Below, piece after piece: positions 1 to 9,133 of a stretch of DNA of 9,133 bases. Position numbers and translations under genes: made by a program. The stretch covers positions 1-9,133 of the IMG/VR virus record IMGVR_UViG_2585427757_000007; one strand, written 5' to 3'. Source of the DNA: a virus. Its lineage: Duplodnaviria; Heunggongvirae; Uroviricota; Caudoviricetes. The notes under the pieces are model-generated. The model had not been told where the DNA came from. It made no database searches and worked only from the letters and a program-made list of their open reading frames with translations. How positions within the stretch are numbered: position 1 is the first letter of the stretch; each line of letters starts with the position of its first letter.

Positions 1-120
1 TCTGATAGGCTCATACCGCTTTTGCGCAAAGCAGATGGGCCTGAGGTTTGCTTGTGACCCCAACGCATGAGCAGATGGCTGGCAGGTGCCGCTAACACCC
101 ACCAGCCGCCCATTACCACA

Positions 121-147
121 AATTAAAAAGCCTTCACTGCGGAAGGC
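121..147 (-). terminator. Candidate intrinsic terminator after the small CDS 134..331
   Basis: Perfect inverted repeat GCCTTC (130-135) / GAAGGC (142-147) with a 6-nt loop; on the minus strand the stem is followed by TTTTTAATT (129-121). The stem includes the stop codon at 134-136. Confidence 0.4.
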
Positions 148-331
148 GTCTGTAACAACCGAACTGATAATCTGCCAGACCCGCCATAACAAGCTGAGTC
201 AGTATTAACTGGCAGCGTTCGCGTGAAAGGTAAGTATTCTGCGCAATTTCCCCGACGGTCGCCGGTTCGGTGACGCTTAATTCATTAAACACCACTCTGG
301 CGGTTTCGGTCATATCCTGCTGTTTTAGCAT
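134..331 (-). CDS. Small hypothetical protein (65 aa), possibly a winged-helix DNA-binding protein; first gene after the candidate tR'
   Basis: Part of track ORF 134..454. I prefer the internal ATG at 331..329 (MLKQQDMTETARVV...), which has a purine-rich SD (AAAAGGGAAAAAGG) just upstream. The GTG at 454 sits inside the terminator-like hairpin, so it is an unlikely start. The functional guess is from sequence pattern only. Confidence 0.4.
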   Translation of the reverse strand: MLKQQDMTETARVVFNELSVTEPATVGEIAQNTYLSRERCQLILTQLVMAGLADYQFGCYRRLPQ

Positions 332-454
332 GCCTTTTTCCCTTTTCCGGTTAACGTGACATACCAATACCTCTTGTCGAAAAAGCCAGCAAGCTGAAAG
401 ACCGGCATTCGCAACCACCAGCGCATTTAACGTCCTGTACCGCTTTTCGGGCAC

Positions 455-476
455 AAAAAAAACCGCATAAAGCGGG
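455..476 (-). terminator. Candidate tR'-like intrinsic terminator downstream of the Q-like gene
   Basis: Minus-strand RNA: CCCGC-UUUAU-GCGG (4 GC pairs) followed by eight U (462-455). It lies about 170-190 nt past the Q-like stop (644-646), similar to the lambda PR'-6S-tR' spacing. The stem is short, so confidence is moderate. Confidence 0.4.
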
Positions 477-480
477 TTCT

Positions 481-643
481 TTCAGGTGTCCATGTCTGCT
501 ATTCGCCTCGCGGTATAGCTTTGCGAAGCGTAGCTGGATTGAAACAGTTTATGGCTAAAAATACAAGCTTTTTTTCTAAAACTGCACAAACCTTACTACC
601 AGCCAAAAATCCTCTTCGTGCAACAACAAACGCCCTCCAGATT
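481..643 (-). promoter_or_regulatory. Candidate late promoter (PR'-like) and Q-utilisation region between the Q-like gene and the tR'-like hairpin
   Basis: Positional inference only. It is a non-coding interval right after the Q-like gene, with several weak -35/-10-like hexamers on the minus strand (for example TTGTGC-N17-TTGTAT); no single promoter can be resolved by eye. Confidence 0.3.
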
Positions 644-1198
644 CTAAGCGTCAGTAAAAGAAAATGCATCTCGCATCAGTGGATACAGAATAAACTCAGC
701 TATTCTCAGCCACATATCTATACGATTGCGGCATGTTGCATAGCACCACTCAGGGTGAACCTCATTCAACAATTCAGCCATTTTGCGTTTACTCATCCCC
801 CGCCCTTCGTACCTTTGCCGCAGGATATCAATCAATCCAGGATAACGTGCAAGCGCTTTACTTATCACCCCATCAATGCGTAACGCCTCTGCATCAGTAC
901 AGTGAGACAACCAGCTCTTCTGTCTGCCAGCGATCATCTCTCGCAAGAATGCTTCCAGCTCTGGTTTATCAATCCCTGACTCCCTGATTCTACGCAGAGC
1001 TTCATTGACCGCGGTTTTTGTCAGTTTTTTGGATGCCAGCAACTGATTGAACATATTTCCTGGTTTGCCACCACCTATATACGACCAACGCCCCCACATC
1101 CGTAATTTTCCCTGGATCCAGACGGCTTCCAGCGTTTTTAGACGTAAATGCTCGCCGCTTTTACCTGTAATTTCCGGGTATATCATATTTACGATCAC
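644..1198 (-). CDS. Putative late-gene antiterminator (Q-like) protein, 184 aa; family not identified
   Basis: Sits directly downstream of rusA with a GTGA start/stop overlap (1195-1198) and is followed by a non-coding stretch ending in a hairpin plus U-tract, as expected for a Q/PR'/tR' arrangement. No lambda-Q-type CxxC zinc ribbon was recognised, so the function is inferred from position. Confidence 0.5.
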   Translation of the reverse strand: MIVNMIYPEITGKSGEHLRLKTLEAVWIQGKLRMWGRWSYIGGGKPGNMFNQLLASKKLTKTAVNEALRRIRESGIDKPELEAFLREMIAGRQKSWLSHCTDAEALRIDGVISKALARYPGLIDILRQRYEGRGMSKRKMAELLNEVHPEWCYATCRNRIDMWLRIAEFILYPLMRDAFSFTDA

Positions 1199-1560
1199 TC
1201 ACTCTCAATTTTGTAAATCTTCACGCCCAGCCGCCCCCCAGGAACGCGCTGACCGCGCACAATATTGATTTCATCAAACTGCTCGTCGTCTATGAGAAGT
1301 CCGGCATGCGTCAGCGCATCCAGTGGTGCTTTCAGGATATTGTCCAGGTCGCGACGACGTTTATCCGGTGGCTCTGCAATAATCTTTATCGCCAGCCTTC
1401 CGGACAGGTTTAATTTCAGCCGCTGCTGGCGAACAATAAGCGCCACATCACGGCGATAACGCTCACCGGCTTTTGATACAAAATATGTGCTGCCACGACG
1501 TCGCCAGTAAGTGTTCACCGTTGGCGGGTAAGGCAAAACAAATTCTATGCGTTCAGTCAT
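1195..1560 (-). CDS. rusA: RusA-family Holliday junction resolvase (crossover junction endodeoxyribonuclease)
   Basis: The 121-aa product (MTERIEFVLPYPPTVNTYWRR...DKRRRDLDNILKAPLDALTHAGLLIDDEQ...) matches the RusA pattern, including the acidic DLDN block; size and position (before the Q-like gene) are typical. SD GGAAAG lies upstream of ATG 1560. Confidence 0.9.
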   Translation of the reverse strand: MTERIEFVLPYPPTVNTYWRRRGSTYFVSKAGERYRRDVALIVRQQRLKLNLSGRLAIKIIAEPPDKRRRDLDNILKAPLDALTHAGLLIDDEQFDEINIVRGQRVPGGRLGVKIYKIESE

Positions 1561-2619
1561 TCATGCTTTCCACTTCAGGACACCCGAATTTCTCGCGTGC
1601 ATTAAAAAACGAATCAGCAACAACAGCTGGCTGCCGTGTTTTTCTTCAAAATCTTTTACCCCGGCGTGTAGTTCGCTATGGCATTTACGGCACAGCGGAA
1701 TAACAAACAAATCATCAGCCTTTGTTCCCATCCCTCCCAGTCCATGACCAATGATGTGATGCGGATCATCTGCCTGATTGCCACACGTCATGCATTTCTG
1801 CGTTTTTACCCAGCGCGTGTATACAGGCATCTCTTCCCGTTGTGGTTTCTGGCGCTGGAGATACTGAGCCGGTGACTCCGGATCAACGGCAATGCTGACC
1901 ACCGTCTTTTCCTGTGGTGGATTCTGTTGCTGGTGGGCGTGAGGCAACGGCGCAATATTTTTTGTGCGCTGCTTCAGTATGCTGATGGCGGTCTGCTCTC
2001 CCGGTACGATGTCGCTCTCGCGGTATACTGAGCGGATTTTTTCACTCGGAAGCTTCAGGATTCGACGCGCCATATTTTCGGTCATGGCATCCACTACATC
2101 ATTTACAGAAGCCCAGCAGCACAATTCAGCCAGCGATAATTCCCGCTCCTGCGTGCCATTCACTGCATGGCGTATGACGTCAATCATCCATGCTGACAGG
2201 TTTTGATGAGCAAGTTGCCCGAGTGATTCGGAGGTCTGGTCACGCAGCTGGTTGTCGCAGTGCCAGCACAACACCATCGCGCCGGTACCGTAACGATGTA
2301 TGACGATTTCACTGTGATGATAGTCACCATGAGGCCACTGGCAGGATTTAACGTGGCGTAACAGCCAGTCAAACAGCGCACCAGCACCGCCAGCAGCACG
2401 AATCACCCGCTCATCGCTGAAAAATGGCAGTAGTGATTTATCCTCCGCCAATGGCTGGCGAACGGCAGGAACGACTCCGGACGGCAGACCGCGCATGCTT
2501 TTCGGTTCCGGCTCCACCAGTACACGACCGCTGCGGAATACCTGCATGGATTCACGACCAGGCTTAAGGACCACCAGCCCAAGTTCCGGTACCGGAACAG
2601 ATCGAAGTAATACCCGCAC
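1561..2619 (-). CDS. YdfU/DUF968-like prophage protein with C-terminal HNH-like Cys/His motif (352 aa)
   Basis: GTG start at 2619 with a strong SD GGAGG 5 nt upstream. The C-terminal block CMTCGNQADDPHHIIGHGLGG...LFVIPLCRKCHSELH (aa 276-318, nt 1666-1794) resembles an HNH/zinc-binding motif. Size and location match Qin ydfU as I recall. Confidence 0.75.
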   Translation of the reverse strand: MRVLLRSVPVPELGLVVLKPGRESMQVFRSGRVLVEPEPKSMRGLPSGVVPAVRQPLAEDKSLLPFFSDERVIRAAGGAGALFDWLLRHVKSCQWPHGDYHHSEIVIHRYGTGAMVLCWHCDNQLRDQTSESLGQLAHQNLSAWMIDVIRHAVNGTQERELSLAELCCWASVNDVVDAMTENMARRILKLPSEKIRSVYRESDIVPGEQTAISILKQRTKNIAPLPHAHQQQNPPQEKTVVSIAVDPESPAQYLQRQKPQREEMPVYTRWVKTQKCMTCGNQADDPHHIIGHGLGGMGTKADDLFVIPLCRKCHSELHAGVKDFEEKHGSQLLLLIRFLMHARNSGVLKWKA

Positions 2620-2620
2620 G

Positions 2621-2899
2621 TTACCTCCAGATCCGTTGCTGGAATGTGCGGGACGGACGCGGTGGGCGTTCGGAATAAGGGAGTCTGACGTAGATTATCC
2701 AGAGACGATAATCGAGGCTGAGGGCTTTCCTAAACTCATACCCACGTCTGCGGTAGTTCTGAATCAGCCACTCGGCCTGTTCTTCGGTGCAGGGGTCGTG
2801 CTGATACCAGTCAGATTTGAATGTGTGAGGATACCGCTCGTGCGTGCAGGCAAGAACGGTCGAATTATTATGATTGTAATATTTTGCGTTGCGTGCCAT
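2621..2899 (-). CDS. Hypothetical prophage protein (92 aa)
   Basis: ATG at 2899..2897 preceded by SD GGAGA (spacing about 6). Its stop TAA (2621-2623) lies 1 nt from the GTG start of the downstream gene, indicating translational coupling. Confidence 0.6.
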   Translation of the reverse strand: MARNAKYYNHNNSTVLACTHERYPHTFKSDWYQHDPCTEEQAEWLIQNYRRRGYEFRKALSLDYRLWIIYVRLPYSERPPRPSRTFQQRIWR

Positions 2900-2965
2900 C
2901 GGTTTTCTCCGGTGGCACGGTGTTACTCAGCGGGAGTTCAGCCCCGCGCAAGATTGTAGATGAGT

Positions 2966-3229
2966 TTATTCTTCTGAAAAAGCAGAAAAGCCAGCTTTTA
3001 TTCCGATCTCTTTCAATGCCTGTAATGAAGTGACAAACTCACCATCGCGCAAGATAAATCCGTCCGTCACTCGGGCATCCACAAAATTAATTAACGCAGC
3101 CCCACTCTTTCTTTGCTTCTTTCGCAAACACAGAACGCGGCAATGACTAACAATATTTCCATTTTCAACGCACACAGCATAGAGGCCATCTTCACAAAAA
3201 ATTTTACGCAGTTCTTCGATGTTCATCAT
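2966..3229 (-). CDS. Hypothetical small prophage protein (87 aa); occupies the position that rem holds next to hokD in Qin (identity not verified)
   Basis: ATG-ATG start at 3229 preceded by SD GGAAGGA (spacing about 5). No recognisable motif. Confidence 0.6.
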   Translation of the reverse strand: MMNIEELRKIFCEDGLYAVCVENGNIVSHCRVLCLRKKQRKSGAALINFVDARVTDGFILRDGEFVTSLQALKEIGIKAGFSAFSEE

Positions 3230-3445
3230 CAGAATCCTTCCGGATAATTAGCTCTCCCCTTCAGGGGGCCATCCCTCTTATCCCTGCGCGCTACTTAAGT
3301 GTTTTGGATTCTATATCCGGTGTCTTAAAAAAGTTAAAACGCATTGAAAATAAAACAAAAACCGTCGAAGCGGGTTAAGTGCGGGTGCGTTGAGGATGCC
3401 GACACATCAGAGGTGGCGGGAGATTACTCTCCCGCCAGGTCACTC

Positions 3446-3601
3446 TTACTCTCTAGATTCGTAGTCTACGAAAACAGCAACCTCCATCTGGCCGGTTCGG
3501 ATTCGTACCTCGCAGAGGTCTTTCCTCGTTACCAGTGCCGTCACTATGACGGTTAAACAGATGACGATCAGGGCGATTAACATCGCCTTTTGCTGCTTCA
3601 T
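3446..3601 (-). CDS. hok: Hok/Gef-family type I toxin (HokD/RelF-like), 51 aa
   Basis: Product MKQQKAMLIALIVICLTVIVTALVTRKDLCEVRIRTGQMEVAVFVDYESRE: a single transmembrane helix plus the conserved C..R.....E.A.F...E tail, near-identical over about 38 residues to E. coli HokD as I recall it. ATG at 3601..3599 with SD AAGGAG about 9 nt upstream. The track ORF 3446..3628 begins at an upstream GTG that I consider less likely. Confidence 0.9.
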   Translation of the reverse strand: MKQQKAMLIALIVICLTVIVTALVTRKDLCEVRIRTGQMEVAVFVDYESRE

Positions 3602-3659
3602 AGCCTGCTTCTCCTTGCCTTTCGGCACGTAAGAGGCTAATCTTCAGTTGTCGAGACAT
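3453..3659 (-). CDS. mok: mok-like overlapping reading frame (modulator of killing), about 68 aa
   Basis: An alternative frame overlaps nearly all of hok and starts at ATG 3659..3657, about 58 nt upstream of the hok start, as in canonical hok/mok/sok loci. The track ORF 3453..3758 is the longest form; the shorter start is an inference. Confidence 0.45.
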   Translation of the reverse strand: MSRQLKISLLRAERQGEAGYEAAKGDVNRPDRHLFNRHSDGTGNEERPLRGTNPNRPDGGCCFRRLRI

Positions 3660-3877
3660 AAGACTGGCCTCACTTCGATTTATAGTCGGGTGGGGCTTTT
3701 CTCTATCTGCCTTTTGGTGTTCATGCCTGAGACAGATAGCCTCAAGCACCCGCAGCAATTCTACTTATGACGCAATTTAATGACAACAACTCTACAGCGG
3801 TAGTGTGTTTAACTATTGACATTGATTAACTCATTATTCAAAATTTTTGCGTACGCATTAATGATTTTGTGTCGTTG

Positions 3878-3900
3878 TTGTGATGGTAAAAAAATCACAA
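3878..3900. promoter_or_regulatory. Perfect dyad TTGTGAT-N9-ATCACAA overlapping a TGgTAAAAA extended -10-like element about 35 nt upstream of gene A
   Basis: TTGTGAT at 3878-3884 and ATCACAA at 3894-3900 are exact reverse complements. The spacer contains TG at 3884-3885 followed by TAAAAA at 3887-3892. Candidate operator and promoter for the A-B operon. Confidence 0.35.
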
Positions 3901-3934
3901 ACGATCTAACAATAACATAGGTGATATTTTCAAT

Positions 3935-5077
3935 ATGGAAATTAAGCAAGTTATCGTTCATGAACTAATTAAAGAAGCAAAAAAGGATTTTGATTTTTCT
4001 AAGCCGTATCAGCTTAGATCCACTCCTCTCGATAAAACCAATCCAATTGTTATAAAACTTATTCAAGACATTTCATCTTTATATGGAACCAAAGGCAATT
4101 CTGCACATTATGGCGTTTTTAAAGAGGAGAAAACAGAACAAGGGCCTGTGCCATCAATATTTGAAGAGTATTCTCAGTCAGAGGATAACATTAATGAAAA
4201 GTTTGTGCCTTTTTCTATTGAAGTGATGAAGCAACTTGTAAAAAAAGCCAAAGAAGAACCTTGGTCATCTGGTGGTTTTATTGTGTTTTGTGACTATATT
4301 GTAAATAACAATAAATTCTTTTTAATTGCAATGATTAAAAAGAAAAATGGTGTTACTATCAGCAACAAACTCGAACCTGAAGAAATGATCCATTTGGATC
4401 TATCCAAAATACACCAAGCAGCAAGAATAAATTTCAATCTCTACCAACAATATAAAACTGCTGATGAGTCTGAAAAAATTGACTTAAGTTATCTAAGTTT
4501 CGTAAGTAAAGGAGTGGGTCAATCCACATCAGCATATTTTATTGCAGCAATAGGATGCGACAAATCACTTGCAGCAGCAAAAGCCACAAAAAAACTACCA
4601 ACTGTCGCAAAACAATTTTTTAACCAAAAACCAGAACTTAAAGCATGTGCCAATAGATTTAAACATGACGTTATTGCATATTTAGACACACAAGCAGCTA
4701 AAAATTTATCAGCCCGATTGAGTGATATTGAAGTAATTGCAGCACGTCACATGACAAATTTAGATGAGTCTACCAAAGAATCTTACACTCACGAATTAAT
4801 TCTTTTTTTAAATAGTGAAAATGTGAGAATCCCAACTGAATTTGTTATCAGTAAACGGGCGTTGAAAGACATTAAAAACATCACCTTTAAGACTGATGAG
4901 ATTGGATTTAATTTTGACAAGTCTCTCCTTGGAGTGACAGCTGATGATGATGTGTGGTACGATGAAACAACTGGAAGATTATCATTTACAAACTTACCAG
5001 CTGAATTTAAGGCTAAACTAAGCGCTGTGGTAAAAGAAAATTTAAAAATAAGGGATAGTGGAAAAGAAAATGGCTAA
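3935..5077 (+). CDS. Nucleoid-associated protein YejK/NdpA (NA37 family) homologue, divergent, 380 aa (gene A)
   Basis: ATG 3935 with SD AGGTGA upstream. Several blocks align with E. coli YejK as I recall it: IVHELIK vs IALHQLIK; LYGTKGNSAHYGVFKEE vs VYSAKNKAYGLFSEE; GGFIVFCDY vs GGFVLFCHY; FNFDKSLLG...VWYDETTGRLSF vs INFDAMLLG...IFWDPATDTLTI. The gene is about 30% GC, unlike the flanking backbone. Confidence 0.85.
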   Translation: MEIKQVIVHELIKEAKKDFDFSKPYQLRSTPLDKTNPIVIKLIQDISSLYGTKGNSAHYGVFKEEKTEQGPVPSIFEEYSQSEDNINEKFVPFSIEVMKQLVKKAKEEPWSSGGFIVFCDYIVNNNKFFLIAMIKKKNGVTISNKLEPEEMIHLDLSKIHQAARINFNLYQQYKTADESEKIDLSYLSFVSKGVGQSTSAYFIAAIGCDKSLAAAKATKKLPTVAKQFFNQKPELKACANRFKHDVIAYLDTQAAKNLSARLSDIEVIAARHMTNLDESTKESYTHELILFLNSENVRIPTEFVISKRALKDIKNITFKTDEIGFNFDKSLLGVTADDDVWYDETTGRLSFTNLPAEFKAKLSAVVKENLKIRDSGKENG

Positions 5078-6290
5078 TTTATCAACGGTTGTAGATTTTT
5101 ATAGAGCATCATCGAAGCCCCAATTCGACGGACGTTCTTTTTCTGCAACTGTTGAAATAAATAATAACAATCAACGTTTGGTAAACTTGTTAGTAAATTC
5201 ACATAAAGCCTACGGTTATTTTGAAGATGTTGATATTAATAATGAGTTCATTGACGAAGACGATTTAAAATCACACCCAATTAAAATTGGAGATAAATTC
5301 TCATACACTTACATATCCCCTAAAAATGGAGCAGAACGTTTCTATAACTCAATTCAAGAGTTCCTTTGTATAAACTCACTCAAGAAAGGTGTAATTCCTA
5401 AAGAGTATTACATAATCGATGAGGATTTTCATCCGTCTGATTCAAGTAAACCGGACGAAATTATAAAAATCGAGAAAATTTGTGCAATTATTTCTTCCCT
5501 GGCTGAGATTGCGCACTTTCACGATACAAAATCGGAATCTTCAAATTATCGTTTAGTTTTCGTGAAAGATTCTGACGCAAAATCAACATCTATTATTTTA
5601 GAAACGTGCATTACACCTAAGATGCTCAATATAAATGACATTGATGATGCTATCATCAAGAGTCTTTTAGATGTAAAAAACGCCCAAATCCCCCATCAAG
5701 CAGAAAAAACAGGTATTTTCAGGAATACCATAGTGGAGTTTATTCTCGATAACAAATATGATTTTGAAAACCTAATTTGCCATTGGGATAAATTTGTAAA
5801 GCTATTTGAAAATAATTTATCCACGTATATGAGTGGTTTTTCATTCCATAAGGCACGAAAAGAAATTGCGAAGTCTGAAGCAGAGTTTGCTGAAAAAATC
5901 TCAAAACTTATTACTGATTTGACGACAAAAGTATTATCAATCCCTGTGTCTTTACTGGCATCCTTCGGGATTATAAAACTAACATCAAGATCTGAAATGT
6001 TACTCGTTTTATTAGGTGTATTGTTAAGCTCACTTATTTTATATATGGTATTACTCAATCAGGATAAACAATTAAAACATATTTACCATGCTAAAGATAT
6101 AGCATTTATGCCTTTTCTAAAAAACAATGAAAATTATCCAGAAGACCTTAAGAAGGACATTAATGAGGCTCTATATGAACTATCAAAGAGCCAAACCAAA
6201 TGTGATAATACAATAAAGTTATTTATGTATTTGGCTTGGCTACCAAGTTCTATTGCAGCAGGAATATTTCTTGCGAAGATTTTTATTTAG
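5070..6290 (+). CDS. Membrane-anchored protein of unknown function (gene B); about 300-aa soluble N-terminal region plus C-terminal hydrophobic helices
   Basis: Preferred start is ATG 5070 (MANLSTV...), which overlaps the gene A stop (5075-5077) by 8 nt; the track ORF begins at GTG 5058. Hydrophobic segments (track numbering): VLSIPVSLLASFGIIKL (about 292-308), MLLVLLGVLLSSLILYMVLL (314-333) and LFMYLAWLPSSIAAGIFLAKIFI (388-410). AT-rich; no known motif recognised. Confidence 0.8.
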   Translation: MANLSTVVDFYRASSKPQFDGRSFSATVEINNNNQRLVNLLVNSHKAYGYFEDVDINNEFIDEDDLKSHPIKIGDKFSYTYISPKNGAERFYNSIQEFLCINSLKKGVIPKEYYIIDEDFHPSDSSKPDEIIKIEKICAIISSLAEIAHFHDTKSESSNYRLVFVKDSDAKSTSIILETCITPKMLNINDIDDAIIKSLLDVKNAQIPHQAEKTGIFRNTIVEFILDNKYDFENLICHWDKFVKLFENNLSTYMSGFSFHKARKEIAKSEAEFAEKISKLITDLTTKVLSIPVSLLASFGIIKLTSRSEMLLVLLGVLLSSLILYMVLLNQDKQLKHIYHAKDIAFMPFLKNNENYPEDLKKDINEALYELSKSQTKCDNTIKLFMYLAWLPSSIAAGIFLAKIFI

Positions 6291-6306
6291 CTCTAACAGT
6301 TAGAGC
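6290..6306. other. Short palindrome between convergent genes B and C; weak candidate bidirectional terminator
   Basis: GCTCTAA (6290-6296) / TTAGAGC (6300-6306) with loop CAG. It contains the last base of the B stop codon (TAG 6288-6290) and the whole C stop codon (TAA on the minus strand, 6300-6302). The stem is AT-rich and lacks a clear U-tract on either side. Confidence 0.3.
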
Positions 6307-6815
6307 ATTAATACTCCCTCCAATACTCCCATCGCTGCTTGTATTTTTTTTCTAATAGTCCCATCCGCACATTTCTTTCTTTTTGCGATCTTTCTCAAAG
6401 AAACGCCTATTACAAAGTGGGCAACAATTAACTCATATTCATCTATTTTATATTGTCTGAGTCTCAATATCCACTCATCAATCACTCGCCCTTCATCATC
6501 GCGGCTCTGGCGACGCAATTTTTTACCATGAGGCACAACATCTTTATATTTATCAGCCACTTGCTGCCAGTTGATAGAACTATTTCCAGCTACAGCCCAA
6601 GCTCCCCAACAGTCCAAAATATCATATATATTAGCATTGCTATCTACCTGTTTTTTATATTCTTTTTTGAAGCGAGCAAGAAGCATCCTGGCCATCGTTA
6701 TTATTTCTATACTTGTAACTGATTCATAAGCATCAGGAGAAATAATCCTCCCATCACTTAATGCCCTTTCACTAAGATTTGCTATTTCCAATAATCGTTC
6801 TTTAGTTATTTCCAT
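6300..6815 (-). CDS. Q933/QuuD-family (PF06530-type) antiterminator-like protein with about 60-aa N-terminal extension (gene C), 171 aa
   Basis: Preferred start is ATG 6815..6813 with SD GGAG 7 nt upstream; the track ORF starts at GTG 6827. It shares a WGAWA motif and the C-terminal block ELIVAHFVIGVSLRKIAKRKKCADGTIRKKIQAAMGVLEGVLML with the DLP12/933W-type Q protein as I recall it (...LLVDYYVVGMTF...CSDGYIGKRLQKAEGIIEGMLMAL); this region also resembles a sigma-70 region-4 HTH. About 38-40% GC. Confidence 0.7.
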   Translation of the reverse strand: MEITKERLLEIANLSERALSDGRIISPDAYESVTSIEIITMARMLLARFKKEYKKQVDSNANIYDILDCWGAWAVAGNSSINWQQVADKYKDVVPHGKKLRRQSRDDEGRVIDEWILRLRQYKIDEYELIVAHFVIGVSLRKIAKRKKCADGTIRKKIQAAMGVLEGVLML

Positions 6816-6826
6816 TATTATCTCCA

Positions 6827-6842
6827 CCGCCCTTTCGGGCGG
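6827..6842 (-). other. GC-rich hairpin immediately upstream of the gene C ribosome-binding site
   Basis: CCGCCC (6827-6832) / GGGCGG (6837-6842), a perfect 6-bp GC stem; on the minus strand the loop is GAAA (a GNRA-type tetraloop). No U-tract follows on either strand, so it is not a classical terminator. It abuts the SD of gene C. Confidence 0.4.
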
Positions 6843-6929
6843 CCTCCTGATGTTCTGAGGGTGCAGAAATCCCTCCGGTTAAGGATTAAATTTTATTTAC
6901 AGTGCTGGATTTAATTATTCAGATTTGGA

Positions 6930-7205
6930 TTATGCTTTCTCTTCACTCCGGTATACAAGAATTACAACGTCACCTCTGCTAATCACGCGAGCTGGCTCTC
7001 CTGGTTCTATACTGTCAATATCGAAGGTCTCAAAAAACGCATTCATTGCCTTCTGCCGCTGCGTCTGTTTACAGCGTTTATTCCATTCTTTCAGTAACAT
7101 CAGTGACAGCCACCGCCATGAGCAGAACATGATGTAGCACCAACCAAGAAGCGCCAGCCCCGTATTGAGGGCCGTACCAATCGTCATTGTTGCGTCGATA
7201 TTCAC
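6930..7205 (-). CDS. Small hypothetical membrane protein (91 aa)
   Basis: GTG start at 7205 preceded by a strong SD AGGAGGAGG; the start overlaps the stop of the upstream gene (GTGA at 7202-7205). Hydrophobic stretch IGTALNTGLALLGWCYIMFCSWRWLSLMLL. Confidence 0.6.
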   Translation of the reverse strand: MNIDATMTIGTALNTGLALLGWCYIMFCSWRWLSLMLLKEWNKRCKQTQRQKAMNAFFETFDIDSIEPGEPARVISRGDVVILVYRSEEKA

Positions 7206-7498
7206 TGTACCTCCTCCTGGAAAATAACTGCATGCCCCAGTTTCTCCGCCAGCGCCAGTTCTGCCTTAGCGCCTGCTGACCGCTGCCAGCCTTTCAGCAT
7301 GTAAATCGCATCCACACAACGAATCATTGCCATGCAAATATCCATGTAGTGCGGCTGTGTCAGCCCGTCCGGAAGCACAGCCGGATTTAAAACGGTATGC
7401 CCTTCCCGTTTCAGTTCCTCTTCTGCCTTGTGAAACGCCTCACGGTTGAAATTTTCATACCCCGTCATTGGACCGGCGATATAAACCCTCACCCTCAC
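7202..7498 (-). CDS. DUF4406 / nucleoside 2-deoxyribosyltransferase-like small protein (98 aa)
   Basis: N-terminal VYIAGPMTG motif typical of this fold. GTG start at 7498 preceded by SD AGGAGG (spacing about 7); GTGA overlap with the upstream stop. Confidence 0.6.
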   Translation of the reverse strand: MRVRVYIAGPMTGYENFNREAFHKAEEELKREGHTVLNPAVLPDGLTQPHYMDICMAMIRCVDAIYMLKGWQRSAGAKAELALAEKLGHAVIFQEEVQ

Positions 7499-7911
7499 GC
7501 CATCACCTCCTGAAAATTACCCTGATAAAATGCCAGCACACGCTGCATAACCTTGCTTTTCTGGCACTCGAGACAGATTATGTTCTGACGCCTGTCGTAG
7601 TGGCGTATCTCTCCATCTGGTAATGAATAAATCAGGCCAGGGTCGCTCTTCTTTTTCGCTGCACCTTTAGACATCTCTTTATGGGCTTTTATCCAGTCTT
7701 TACGTACCTGCTCAGAAGGGAATATTCCATGCCCTGAACCATATACAACACCACGGTCTACCAGTTCTTTCGCCAGAACTTCAATCAGATGTCTCGTCGC
7801 CCCTGTTTCATTTTCCAGTTGTTTACGCGTTTTCCTACCATCTCTGCGTACCAGTTCCACAATACGCGCCTTTACTTCTTCCCGTTGTTCGGGAGTAAAA
7901 ACTTTTACCAT
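7495..7911 (-). CDS. Hypothetical prophage protein (138 aa)
   Basis: ATG 7911 preceded by a strong SD AGGAGG. Follows the DnaC-like gene after a 14-nt gap. No motif recognised. Confidence 0.65.
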   Translation of the reverse strand: MVKVFTPEQREEVKARIVELVRRDGRKTRKQLENETGATRHLIEVLAKELVDRGVVYGSGHGIFPSEQVRKDWIKAHKEMSKGAAKKKSDPGLIYSLPDGEIRHYDRRQNIICLECQKSKVMQRVLAFYQGNFQEVMA

Positions 7912-7925
7912 AAGTCCTCCTGAAA

Positions 7926-8672
7926 TTACTTCACAACCCTCAGGTGTCTGACATTCGAACGCCAGCTCTCCCAGTTAAAATTCACCCAGCGACCACCGTT
8001 CATGACCATGCGGTCCATCACACGCTCGCCAAGAAGCGTACTCATCGCTACGTGGTTCAGGTTCGTCAGCATTCCGACACTACGCATCGAAGCCGTTCTG
8101 CGGTCGACTATCTGGTTCAGTGTGACCTGCTCGTTGCGCGTATCCCGCTGCATTCCGATTTCATCCAGGACAAGCAGGTCAACATCACACAACCCCTGTA
8201 AAAATTTTTCGCCTGAGTTTTTATTGTCGTAGCTGTTGTGTAACGCCAGCATCACATCAGCCACCGTTATCACAATCACGCTGCGACCTTTCGCCAGAAG
8301 ATGATTGCCAATGGCGGCTGCAAGGTGGTTCTTTCCGGTACCCGGCTTACCGCTGAACACAAAATTCGTGCACCCGGTCATCAGTTCGTCAGCGATGGAT
8401 TTTGCCTGGCTCAGCGCATGTTTTTGCCCGTCGTTCTGCACCTGATAATTCGCAAACGAGCATTTGCTGTGCAGAGGCTGGATGCCCGAACGATTCAGGA
8501 TTTTTTCCACCCGCAACTGGCGATTCTGGCGGTTGATCTCCTCGCTACGTTTTCGCCCTTCAGCCAGTTGCCACTCGCGCCACTCATCCACTGTCCGGTA
8601 CGGCGCGATTACATGCTGCGGGGTCAGCTTACGGATACGCTCAAGAACACCACCTGCCGCGATATTTTTCAT
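7926..8672 (-). CDS. dnaC: DnaC-like replicative helicase loader (IstB-like AAA+ ATPase), prophage copy
   Basis: Walker A FSGKPGTGKNHLAAAIG and Walker B DLLVLDEIG. Similar across the full length to E. coli DnaC as I recall it (RSGIQPLHSKCSFANYQV vs RSGIRPLHQNCSFENYRV; VTLNQIVDRR...GMLTN...LLGERVMDRM). Confidence 0.9.
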   Translation of the reverse strand: MKNIAAGGVLERIRKLTPQHVIAPYRTVDEWREWQLAEGRKRSEEINRQNRQLRVEKILNRSGIQPLHSKCSFANYQVQNDGQKHALSQAKSIADELMTGCTNFVFSGKPGTGKNHLAAAIGNHLLAKGRSVIVITVADVMLALHNSYDNKNSGEKFLQGLCDVDLLVLDEIGMQRDTRNEQVTLNQIVDRRTASMRSVGMLTNLNHVAMSTLLGERVMDRMVMNGGRWVNFNWESWRSNVRHLRVVK

Positions 8673-8678
8673 GGCCCG

Positions 8679-9133
8679 TTACCCCCTGAACCCCGGCGGA
8701 ATTTCGGTATCCGGCTCAGAAATATGATTCACACAACGCTGTACAGACGAACGCCCCAGGCGGATAACCAGTTCATCCCATTTTCCGCGAAGCTTTGACG
8801 GACTCATGATATTTTTTACCCAGAATGGATCCCGCTGCGCCCGACCAAACATTTCACAAATTTGTCTGTGAGTTCTGCCATCCAGCATCCGCATTGTGCG
8901 CACGTCGTTGGCCCATGCGGTCCAGTTGGGTTCTTTCGGTCGCGAAATCTCGCCATCATCGCTGGCGGCCTGCTCGTAAAGACTCACGATTCGTCCCCAG
9001 ATCCACTGCGCACACGCCAAATCCTCCTGATTGCCCCACTGGCGTTTTTTTGCACTGAACACAACCGCGTCAGGGTGTCGGGTTAAAAAATCCTGTTCAA
9101 CCGCCTGCGGGTCCGGTTGCGAAGCTTCCGGAC
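8679..9133 (-). CDS. DnaT-like (primosomal protein 1 C-terminal domain) replication protein; 5' end lies beyond the window
   Basis: The reading frame stays open from 9062 to the window edge (my translation of 9063-9131 has no stop). The C-terminus ...NHISEPDTEIPPGFRG matches the E. coli DnaT C-terminus (...SEPDSQIPPGFRG) as I recall it. Together with the DnaC-like gene this forms a dnaTC-like pair. Confidence 0.75.
   Translation of the reverse strand, partial: PEASQPDPQAVEQDFLTRHPDAVVFSAKKRQWGNQEDLACAQWIWGRIVSLYEQAASDDGEISRPKEPNWTAWANDVRTMRMLDGRTHRQICEMFGRAQRDPFWVKNIMSPSKLRGKWDELVIRLGRSSVQRCVNHISEPDTEIPPGFRG

Follow-up and report, generated by a model that had tools for sequence, protein, structure and literature searches.

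The window analyzed here, a stretch of 9,133 nucleotides that makes up positions 1 to 9,133 of IMG/VR virus record IMGVR_UViG_2585427757_000007, belongs to a lambda-like Escherichia coli prophage, the backbone genes of which lie on the − strand. An AT-rich variable island of 3,058 bp (GC 0.332), extending from position 3768 to position 6825, carries three genes: two on the + strand, opposite to the backbone, which encode a YejK-like nucleoid-associated protein (NAP) and a predicted membrane partner, and a third on the − strand, with the backbone, which encodes a Q21-type antiterminator-like protein (Table 1). The three reading frames are intact, and their lengths of 380, 406 and 171 amino acids (aa) agree with RefSeq. 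Read from the right, the backbone consists of an O-like replication gene, a DnaC-like loader gene (7926-8672), DUF977, DUF4406 and DUF4752, after which the island begins; it continues to the left of the island with hok and the sok RNA, two small open reading frames (ORFs), DUF968/HNH, RusA and a Q-type antiterminator gene (644-1198, phrog_753).

Table 1. Features of the island and its flanks, with the alternative contents of the same slot in other prophages (positions of the alternative contents are those of the respective loci).
Feature	Position	Strand	Evidence or content
hok toxin gene	3446..3601	-	Left-flank backbone, outside the island; Pfam HOK_GEF 4e-22; RefSeq homologue hokD, 156 nt
hok/sok regulatory RNA region	3596..3751	-	Match to the full model of Rfam RF01794 (sok), 122 bits; the conserved left flank stops here
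Candidate promoter (sigma-70) for the NAP-partner operon, TTGACA-17-CAAAAT	3816..3844	+	Consensus scan, 10/12; 90 nt 5' of the start codon
YejK-like nucleoid-associated protein gene, 380 aa, proposed PagA-like sensor	3935..5077	+	NA37/YejK homology
Partner gene, 406 aa, proposed PagB-like membrane effector	5070..6290	+	phrog_5023 7e-70
Terminator-like hairpin and T-run, 3' end of the operon	6258..6284	+	Pattern scan; stem 6258-6274 within the last codons of the partner gene
Q21-type antiterminator-like gene	6300..6815	-	Pfam Phage_antitermQ (PF06530) 2.8e-29; phrog_79; PDB Q21 6p18/6jnx E 0.005
Conserved 24-nt GC-rich hairpin (CCGCCCTTTCGGGCGG...; CCGCCCTTTCGGGCGGCCTCCTGA)	6827..6850		Right boundary, just upstream of the Q-like start codon
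DUF4752 gene	6930..7205	-	Right-flank backbone; Pfam DUF4752 3.8e-43; replaced in L072
Slot cargo of L002; L006	3698-5107; 2199-3608		Same Q-like gene, DUF6731 and 159-aa membrane protein; enterotoxigenic and other E. coli strains
Slot cargo of L004 (E. coli E24377A); L005	2227-3710; 2156-3639		70-aa gene, 310-aa protein and 184-aa membrane protein
Slot cargo of L003			Single 138-aa gene
Slot cargo of L072			Several small minus-strand genes

The sharp compositional shift described in an earlier sequence-only reading of this DNA is evident both in GC and in GC at third codon positions (GC3); that reading had itself proposed sliding-window GC and codon usage as checks. Over intervals of 300 nt, GC is 0.29-0.36 from about 3750 to about 6450 and 0.38-0.41 from there to about 7000, with flanks at 0.45-0.57 (0.50 in the interval 3451-3750, just left of the island, and 0.46-0.57 past about 7000); by segment, it is 0.497 for 1-3767, 0.325 for 3768-6320, 0.370 for 6321-6826 and 0.511 for 6827-9133. 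The three island genes have GC3 values of 0.24, 0.28 and 0.30, and eight of the ten backbone genes have values of 0.43-0.66, the exceptions being orf87 (2966-3229; 0.375) and DUF977 (0.432). In blastn alignments with six E. coli prophage variants (L002-L006 and L072), homology ends at 3767 and restarts at 6826, and the island therefore corresponds to 3768-6825; the limits of 3780-6930 suggested earlier were right to within about 100 bp. The left junction, which is constant across the six variants, lies 16 nt past the hok/sok element. The closest backbone is that of L072 (strain WP5-S18-ESBL-08), which is 98.0% identical over 1-3767 and 99.3% identical over 7202-9133 and re-aligns over 6826-6934. 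The same reading had the island genes run opposite to the backbone, which is true of the first two and not of the third.

Alignment of related prophages, also proposed in that reading as a way to find exact junctions and any target-site duplication, thus yielded the former and no sign of the latter. No direct or inverted repeats were found at 3767/3768 and 6825/6826, only short chance matches being present within 3500-7200, and no integrase or transposase gene was found among the genes of the island in the ORF list or by Pfam. A transposon-like or integrative insertion was rejected, given the lack of target-site duplication, terminal repeats and a recombinase gene. Because repeats and a target-site duplication are absent and the junctions lie at conserved boundary sequences, the island is evidently a mosaic module that was swapped by recombination at these sequences, as is usual for lambdoid mosaics, and the description of it as interrupting the prophage is better replaced by that of an exchanged module. 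Separate horizontal acquisition, which had been claimed from composition and orientation, agrees with the shift in GC and GC3, with the rarity of the island (4 of 5,426 complete E. coli genomes, these being four unrelated strains in which it is 99.2-99.4% identical), with the presence of at least four other contents at its junctions in otherwise homologous prophages, and with the location of the gene pair next to a homologous Q gene in phages of Xenorhabdus, Proteus, Providencia, Ewingella, Pectobacterium and Klebsiella.

The product of the first gene is a full-length NA37 protein, matching the Pfam family at 2e-51 over residues 7-358 (profile positions 1-324 of 325), phrog_3767 at 3e-73 and the YejK structure PDB 9be2_A at E 3e-14 over residues 2-355. 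The NAP and partner genes share 8 nt, which include the partner ATG (ATGGCTAA). The partner protein has no match in Pfam or PADLOC, and a profile of its family has no match among PDB sequences at E <= 1. Three hydrophobic segments lie in its last 125 residues (about 284-306, 308-330 and 384-406; Kyte-Doolittle 19-residue windows > 1.6), and an AlphaFold2 model, at a predicted local distance difference test score of 86, folds residues 1 to about 205 as an alpha/beta N-domain and residues 210-405 as long helices. The N-domain is acidic, with a net charge of -10 (family median -11.5) and an isoelectric point of 5.07. In an alignment of 29 partner sequences, which are 27-90% identical, 23 columns are invariant.

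The partner family is large, and its pairing with a NAP gene is conserved. A word-indexed search gave 45 clusters and a profile search 1,104 cluster representatives (50% identity), 214 of them at E <= 1e-30 and nearly all about 400-430 aa long. In all 27 loci fetched through partner homologues (29-65% partner identity), which come from Xenorhabdus, Proteus, Shigella, Pectobacterium, Providencia, Ewingella, Pantoea, Pseudomonas, Vibrio and one metagenome-assembled genome labelled as Candidate Phyla Radiation (CPR), the NAP gene lies directly upstream of the partner gene on the same strand. Prophages of Providencia, Proteus, Ewingella, Xenorhabdus, Pectobacterium and Shigella have the order RusA-DUF968-Q, then the convergent partner and NAP genes, then a 65-aa gene, a methyltransferase and holins, and the isolated Klebsiella phage P7641 is arranged likewise; in phages of this RusA-DUF968-Q type, the pair forms a moron that separates Q from the late genes. 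Klebsiella phage P7641 gave the only full-length match when the partner was compared by tblastn with 50,697 phage records, so that few sequenced phage isolates can carry the pair. In Pseudomonas the pair also occurs outside prophages, with its order kept.

Two occurrences deserve separate mention. Shigella flexneri SFBU0723 has two copies (L017 and L024) of a third, diverged allele of the pair, the proteins of which are 53% and 40% identical to those of the window; both copies adjoin Q, DUF968 and RusA, and the genes of L024 match only partially, as if disrupted. The metagenome-assembled genome (L022), labelled Candidatus Moraniibacteriota, has the pair (40% and 31% identity) on a 330-kb contig, an unexpected host that could reflect either horizontal transfer or a binning error.

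A member of this family has been assayed for defence. DS-1 (working name D390) consists of the YejK-domain protein WP_000355468.1 (391 aa) and the hypothetical protein WP_000150292.1 (404 aa) (DeWeirdt et al., Science 2026, PMC13092281) and, cloned alone in MG1655, was recorded as defensive and replicated (DefensePredictor Tables S6 and S8; PMC13092281). In BLASTP comparisons with the printed sequences, the NAP of the window is 22% identical to that of DS-1 over the NA37 core (E 9e-9), and the partner is 27% identical to WP_000150292.1 (E 2e-14); in hhalign, the profile built from 29 partner sequences matches WP_000150292.1 over 302 columns (residues 89-406) with a probability of 98% (E 2.3e-13). 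DS-1 is present in 36 IMG/VR contigs. In each of the ten loci examined, the NAP gene precedes the partner gene, and a convergent PF06530 Q gene directly adjoins the pair; this Q gene is 52-58% identical to the Q-like gene of the window (56% in most of the ten) and is preceded by both DUF968 and RusA in eight. The Q-like gene of the window is likewise convergent with the NAP-partner operon, with 9 nt between the stop codons. Two motifs, AHxHD (residues 148-152) and Y..GFSFHK (253-261), are invariant or nearly so in the 29 partner sequences (invariant residues H151, D152, F257, F259, H260 and K261), and DS-1 keeps them only loosely (ADHHN and KRFSVNK).

From the gene content, operon structure, conserved pairing, DS-1 homology, shared slot and mosaic junctions observed here, the island is probably a mosaic module of a lambda-like prophage whose cargo would be a two-gene abortive-infection defence system, consisting of a NAP and a membrane effector and belonging to the type II PANGU/DS-1 family. 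In its AT-richness, its rarity and its transcription against the direction of the backbone, the cargo resembles a typical moron, and it is likely to be a defence moron expressed in the lysogen. The high variability of the slot, the other cargos of which also combine a soluble with a small membrane protein, points the same way. Type II PANGU systems consist of a YejK-like NAP, Pag2A, and of Pag2B, which has an acidic DNA-mimicking N-domain ("DMK") that binds the NAP and a C-terminal transmembrane domain (Li et al., bioRxiv 2026, 10.64898/2026.04.06.716658); in these systems, the NAP detects genome degradation caused by a phage and switches on the membrane effector. PANGU-Ecu, from E. coli, protects against T4 by abortive infection and requires both genes, T4 denA (EndoII) mutants escape it, and Pag2A leaves the nucleoid on T4 infection; DNA mimicry and NAP binding were shown for PANGU-Ecu only, and experimental anti-phage properties were reported for PANGU-Ecu and PANGU-Ff only (10.64898/2026.04.06.716658). 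The window pair fits these features in being bicistronic with a YejK-like NAP and in the predicted C-terminal transmembrane domain of the partner.

We infer defence activity, trigger and effector action at the window locus from the literature on such homologous and analogous systems. In the lysogen, the operon would be transcribed from its own promoter, against phage transcription, and the YejK-like protein would sit on the host nucleoid. Degradation of host DNA by a superinfecting phage would release the protein, which could then bind the acidic N-terminal domain of the membrane-anchored partner. The partner, once activated, would damage the membrane, and the infected cell would yield no phage.

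Several points weigh against this assignment. Identity to DS-1 is 22% for the NAP and 24-27% for the partner, and the window pair is known from its sequence; moreover, the NAP of DS-1 carries an additional zinc-ribbon (about 40 aa, CxxC...CxxC) at its N-terminus, whereas that of the window starts directly at NA37. The likeness to type II PANGU is one of described architecture and not of compared Pag2A and Pag2B sequences. The partner N-domain is only moderately acidic, and no structural relative that would confirm DNA mimicry was found. PADLOC-DB 2023 gave no match for the three island proteins at E <= 0.1, which is uninformative since the library is older than the DS-1 and PANGU papers. The promoter and the terminator of the operon are consensus or pattern matches only; sigma-70-like sites in the region are not more numerous than in shuffled sequence, and 3816-3844 is such a consensus match.

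The pair might instead serve the biology of the prophage itself, by tethering or compacting DNA at the membrane, by influencing the nucleoid of the host or the expression of genes in the lysogen, or by aiding lysis or induction. YejK is a housekeeping nucleoid protein, and the canonical position of the pair, between Q and the lysis genes, also hosts lysis accessory and lysogenic-conversion genes, both of which are compatible with such a role; but the homologous DS-1 pair scored as defensive on its own in MG1655, the pair is found in unchanged order outside prophages in Pseudomonas, and it is transcribed against late transcription. It is also dispensable to the phage, because nearly identical backbones exist that lack it, and a role of this kind is unlikely. 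That the pair adjoins hok/sok, that relBE occupies the equivalent position in Qin and that a membrane protein could be toxic would suit a post-segregational or addiction module, in which a toxin and its neutralizer stabilize the prophage in the manner of hok/sok or of the Qin relBE. However, proteins of 380 and 406 aa are far above the typical size of toxin-antitoxin components, and neither has a toxin-antitoxin domain, of the relBE type or of another family, in Pfam or PADLOC, which makes an addiction module quite unlikely.

It is highly unlikely that the island is merely decaying or silent AT-rich phage DNA, without selected function, in a cryptic prophage. In favour of this reading, many Qin- and Rac-like prophages of E. 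coli are defective. AT-rich islands are also commonly silenced by H-NS, a subject touched on in a recent report (10.64898/2026.09.05.749240). The intact frames at RefSeq lengths and the near-identity of the island in four unrelated strains speak against decay, and the 23 invariant partner columns together with the 1,104 cluster representatives indicate purifying selection. These alternatives to a defence system are disfavoured because DS-1 alone is defensive, because the frames are intact and conserved, and because PANGU constructs were reported to be non-toxic (10.64898/2026.04.06.716658).

The slot itself is hypervariable. The statement in the sequence-only reading that hokD sits next to relBE in the Qin prophage was accurate: the order in K-12 Qin is ydfT-ydfU-rem-hokD-relE-relB, with relE-relB directly after hokD, and the homology of the window to Qin stops at 3615, within the hok locus. 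The other plus-strand cargos are AT-rich as well (GC 0.34-0.35), and both consist of a soluble protein of about 305 aa together with a small protein with three or four transmembrane segments. In L002 and L006 these are a soluble DUF6731 protein of 304 aa and the 159-aa protein, which has three or four hydrophobic segments and a weak PADLOC match to RexB (E 0.0015), and the two may constitute an uncharacterized RexAB-like defence pair; no mention of DUF6731 was found in a literature search. In L004 and L005 the 184-aa protein has about four transmembrane segments, and DefensePredictor names the soluble 310-aa protein, WP_000556393.1, as a "Predicted novel defense gene" that is remotely similar to RexA (PMC13092281). 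The "sensor" proteins of the L002 and L004 cargos have no detectable relationship to each other.

A literature search for a described Q-adjacent defence hotspot of lambdoid prophages returned nothing specific. We tentatively raise the possibility, which is rather less than an even bet, that the slot adjacent to the Q21-type gene is such a hotspot, previously undescribed, and that its alternative two-gene cargos (DUF6731 with the 159-aa protein, and the 310-aa with the 184-aa protein) are new abortive-infection systems that follow the logic of the NAP pair, with a soluble sensor and a small membrane effector. The constant convergent abutment to Q might also allow antiterminated read-through to silence the defence operon by antisense transcription upon prophage induction.

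The Q-like protein is 171 aa long if translated from the ATG at 6815, or 175 aa if translated from a GTG at 6827. The Q-like part of the island (GC 0.37) is common to the DUF6731 variant, with 88.8% identity to L002 over 6321-7933. The prophage in the window has a second nin-like stretch (DUF968, RusA and a DUF1133-type Q gene) before the late genes, besides the module of Q and pair between DUF4752 and hok, and therefore has two Q-type genes of different families: 644-1198 (-; DUF1133/phrog_753), beside the late region, and 6300-6815 (-; PF06530/phrog_79), in the island. Most likely, the AT-rich Q-like gene moved together with the slot. The 24-nt hairpin at the right boundary is identical, as exact matches, in L001, L002, L004, L005 and L006, the neighbouring (left) genes of which differ, and forms a stable stem in RNA folding; it resembles either a boundary sequence used in recombination or a hairpin conserved in RNA. 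About 60 aa at the N-terminus of the Q-like protein (phrog_3323) form an extension that is lacking in the 116-aa Q proteins of Providencia and Klebsiella phages. Because the unrelated 138-aa protein of L003 (3951-4367) shares the first 16 or so codons of the Q-like gene and its match to phrog_3323, domain shuffling at this extension is suggested.

With regard to the flanks, Rfam found nothing besides the hok/sok element over the whole window. A strong promoter-like site on the − strand at 3758-3786 (TTGTCA-17-TAGAAT, 10/12 matches) is in keeping with where the hok mRNA starts; the left junction falls between its -10 and -35 elements, so that each cargo would supply its own -35 element to hok. 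A second, smaller mosaic patch at 2917-3351, which includes the 87-aa ORF (2966-3229, phrog_340, GC 0.41), is present in L072, L003 and L004 and missing from L001, L002, L005 and L006.

For the window itself, the practical gain is annotation and not a new kind of element. Its allele, at 22-27% identity to DS-1, could nevertheless be used to test the generality of the notion of a "nucleoid protein as genome-integrity sensor", and could help to identify the essential parts of the partner, for which the invariant motifs GFSFHK and AHxHD are obvious targets. The more interesting lead is the slot, in which NAP pairs and RexAB-like pairs alternate: family members occupy a recombination-prone position beside Q in lambda-like phages of Enterobacterales, in alternation with two other uncharacterized "sensor plus membrane protein" pairs, which offers a cheap route to further systems of this kind.

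Among known proteins and systems, E. coli YejK (PDB 9be2), a housekeeping nucleoid-associated protein, is homologous to the first gene product over its full length; in contrast to YejK, the NAP of the window is distant (E 3e-14), phage-borne, AT-rich and always paired with a membrane partner. The third island gene is of the same family as Q of phage 21 (PDB 6p18 and 6jnx; PF06530). However, the window gene has the N-terminal extension of about 60 aa, does not lie beside the late genes and is accompanied by another Q-type gene in the canonical place, whereas related phages keep a PF06530 Q gene at the canonical position after RusA and DUF968. The pair resembles lambda RexAB as a prophage two-gene abortive-infection system, with a soluble DNA-associated sensor and a membrane protein, that would be expressed in the lysogen, and in other strains the slot itself holds RexAB-like cargos. 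It differs from RexAB in that the sensor is of the YejK family and the membrane partner is much larger (406 aa versus 141 RexB profile positions); PADLOC gave no match to RexA or RexB for the window proteins at E <= 0.1, the weak RexB match being confined to the alternative cargo of L002.

With type II PANGU, the pair shares a bicistronic operon with a YejK-like NAP, a partner that is acidic in its N-domain (moderately so in the window) and has a predicted transmembrane domain at the C-terminus, occurrence in E. coli and a family spread across phyla. PANGU systems were identified through linkage to defence islands, in a report in whose text the word "prophage" does not occur (10.64898/2026.04.06.716658). 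The window pair and DS-1 are each a two-gene operon with the NAP first and a partner of about 400 aa with C-terminal hydrophobic helices, both proteins are homologous, and the pairs share a prophage slot in which they converge on an adjoining PF06530 Q gene. DS-1 lies at the canonical position, between RusA-DUF968-Q and the late genes, whereas in the window the Q gene and pair are placed midway through the nin region, with hok, DUF968, RusA and the second Q-type gene downstream of them. By these sequence comparisons, the window pair agrees with the validated DS-1 in its two proteins, in gene order and in genomic slot, and the window allele is probably a strongly diverged member, in a non-canonical position of a mosaic prophage, of a NAP-based type of defence that has been known only since 2026.

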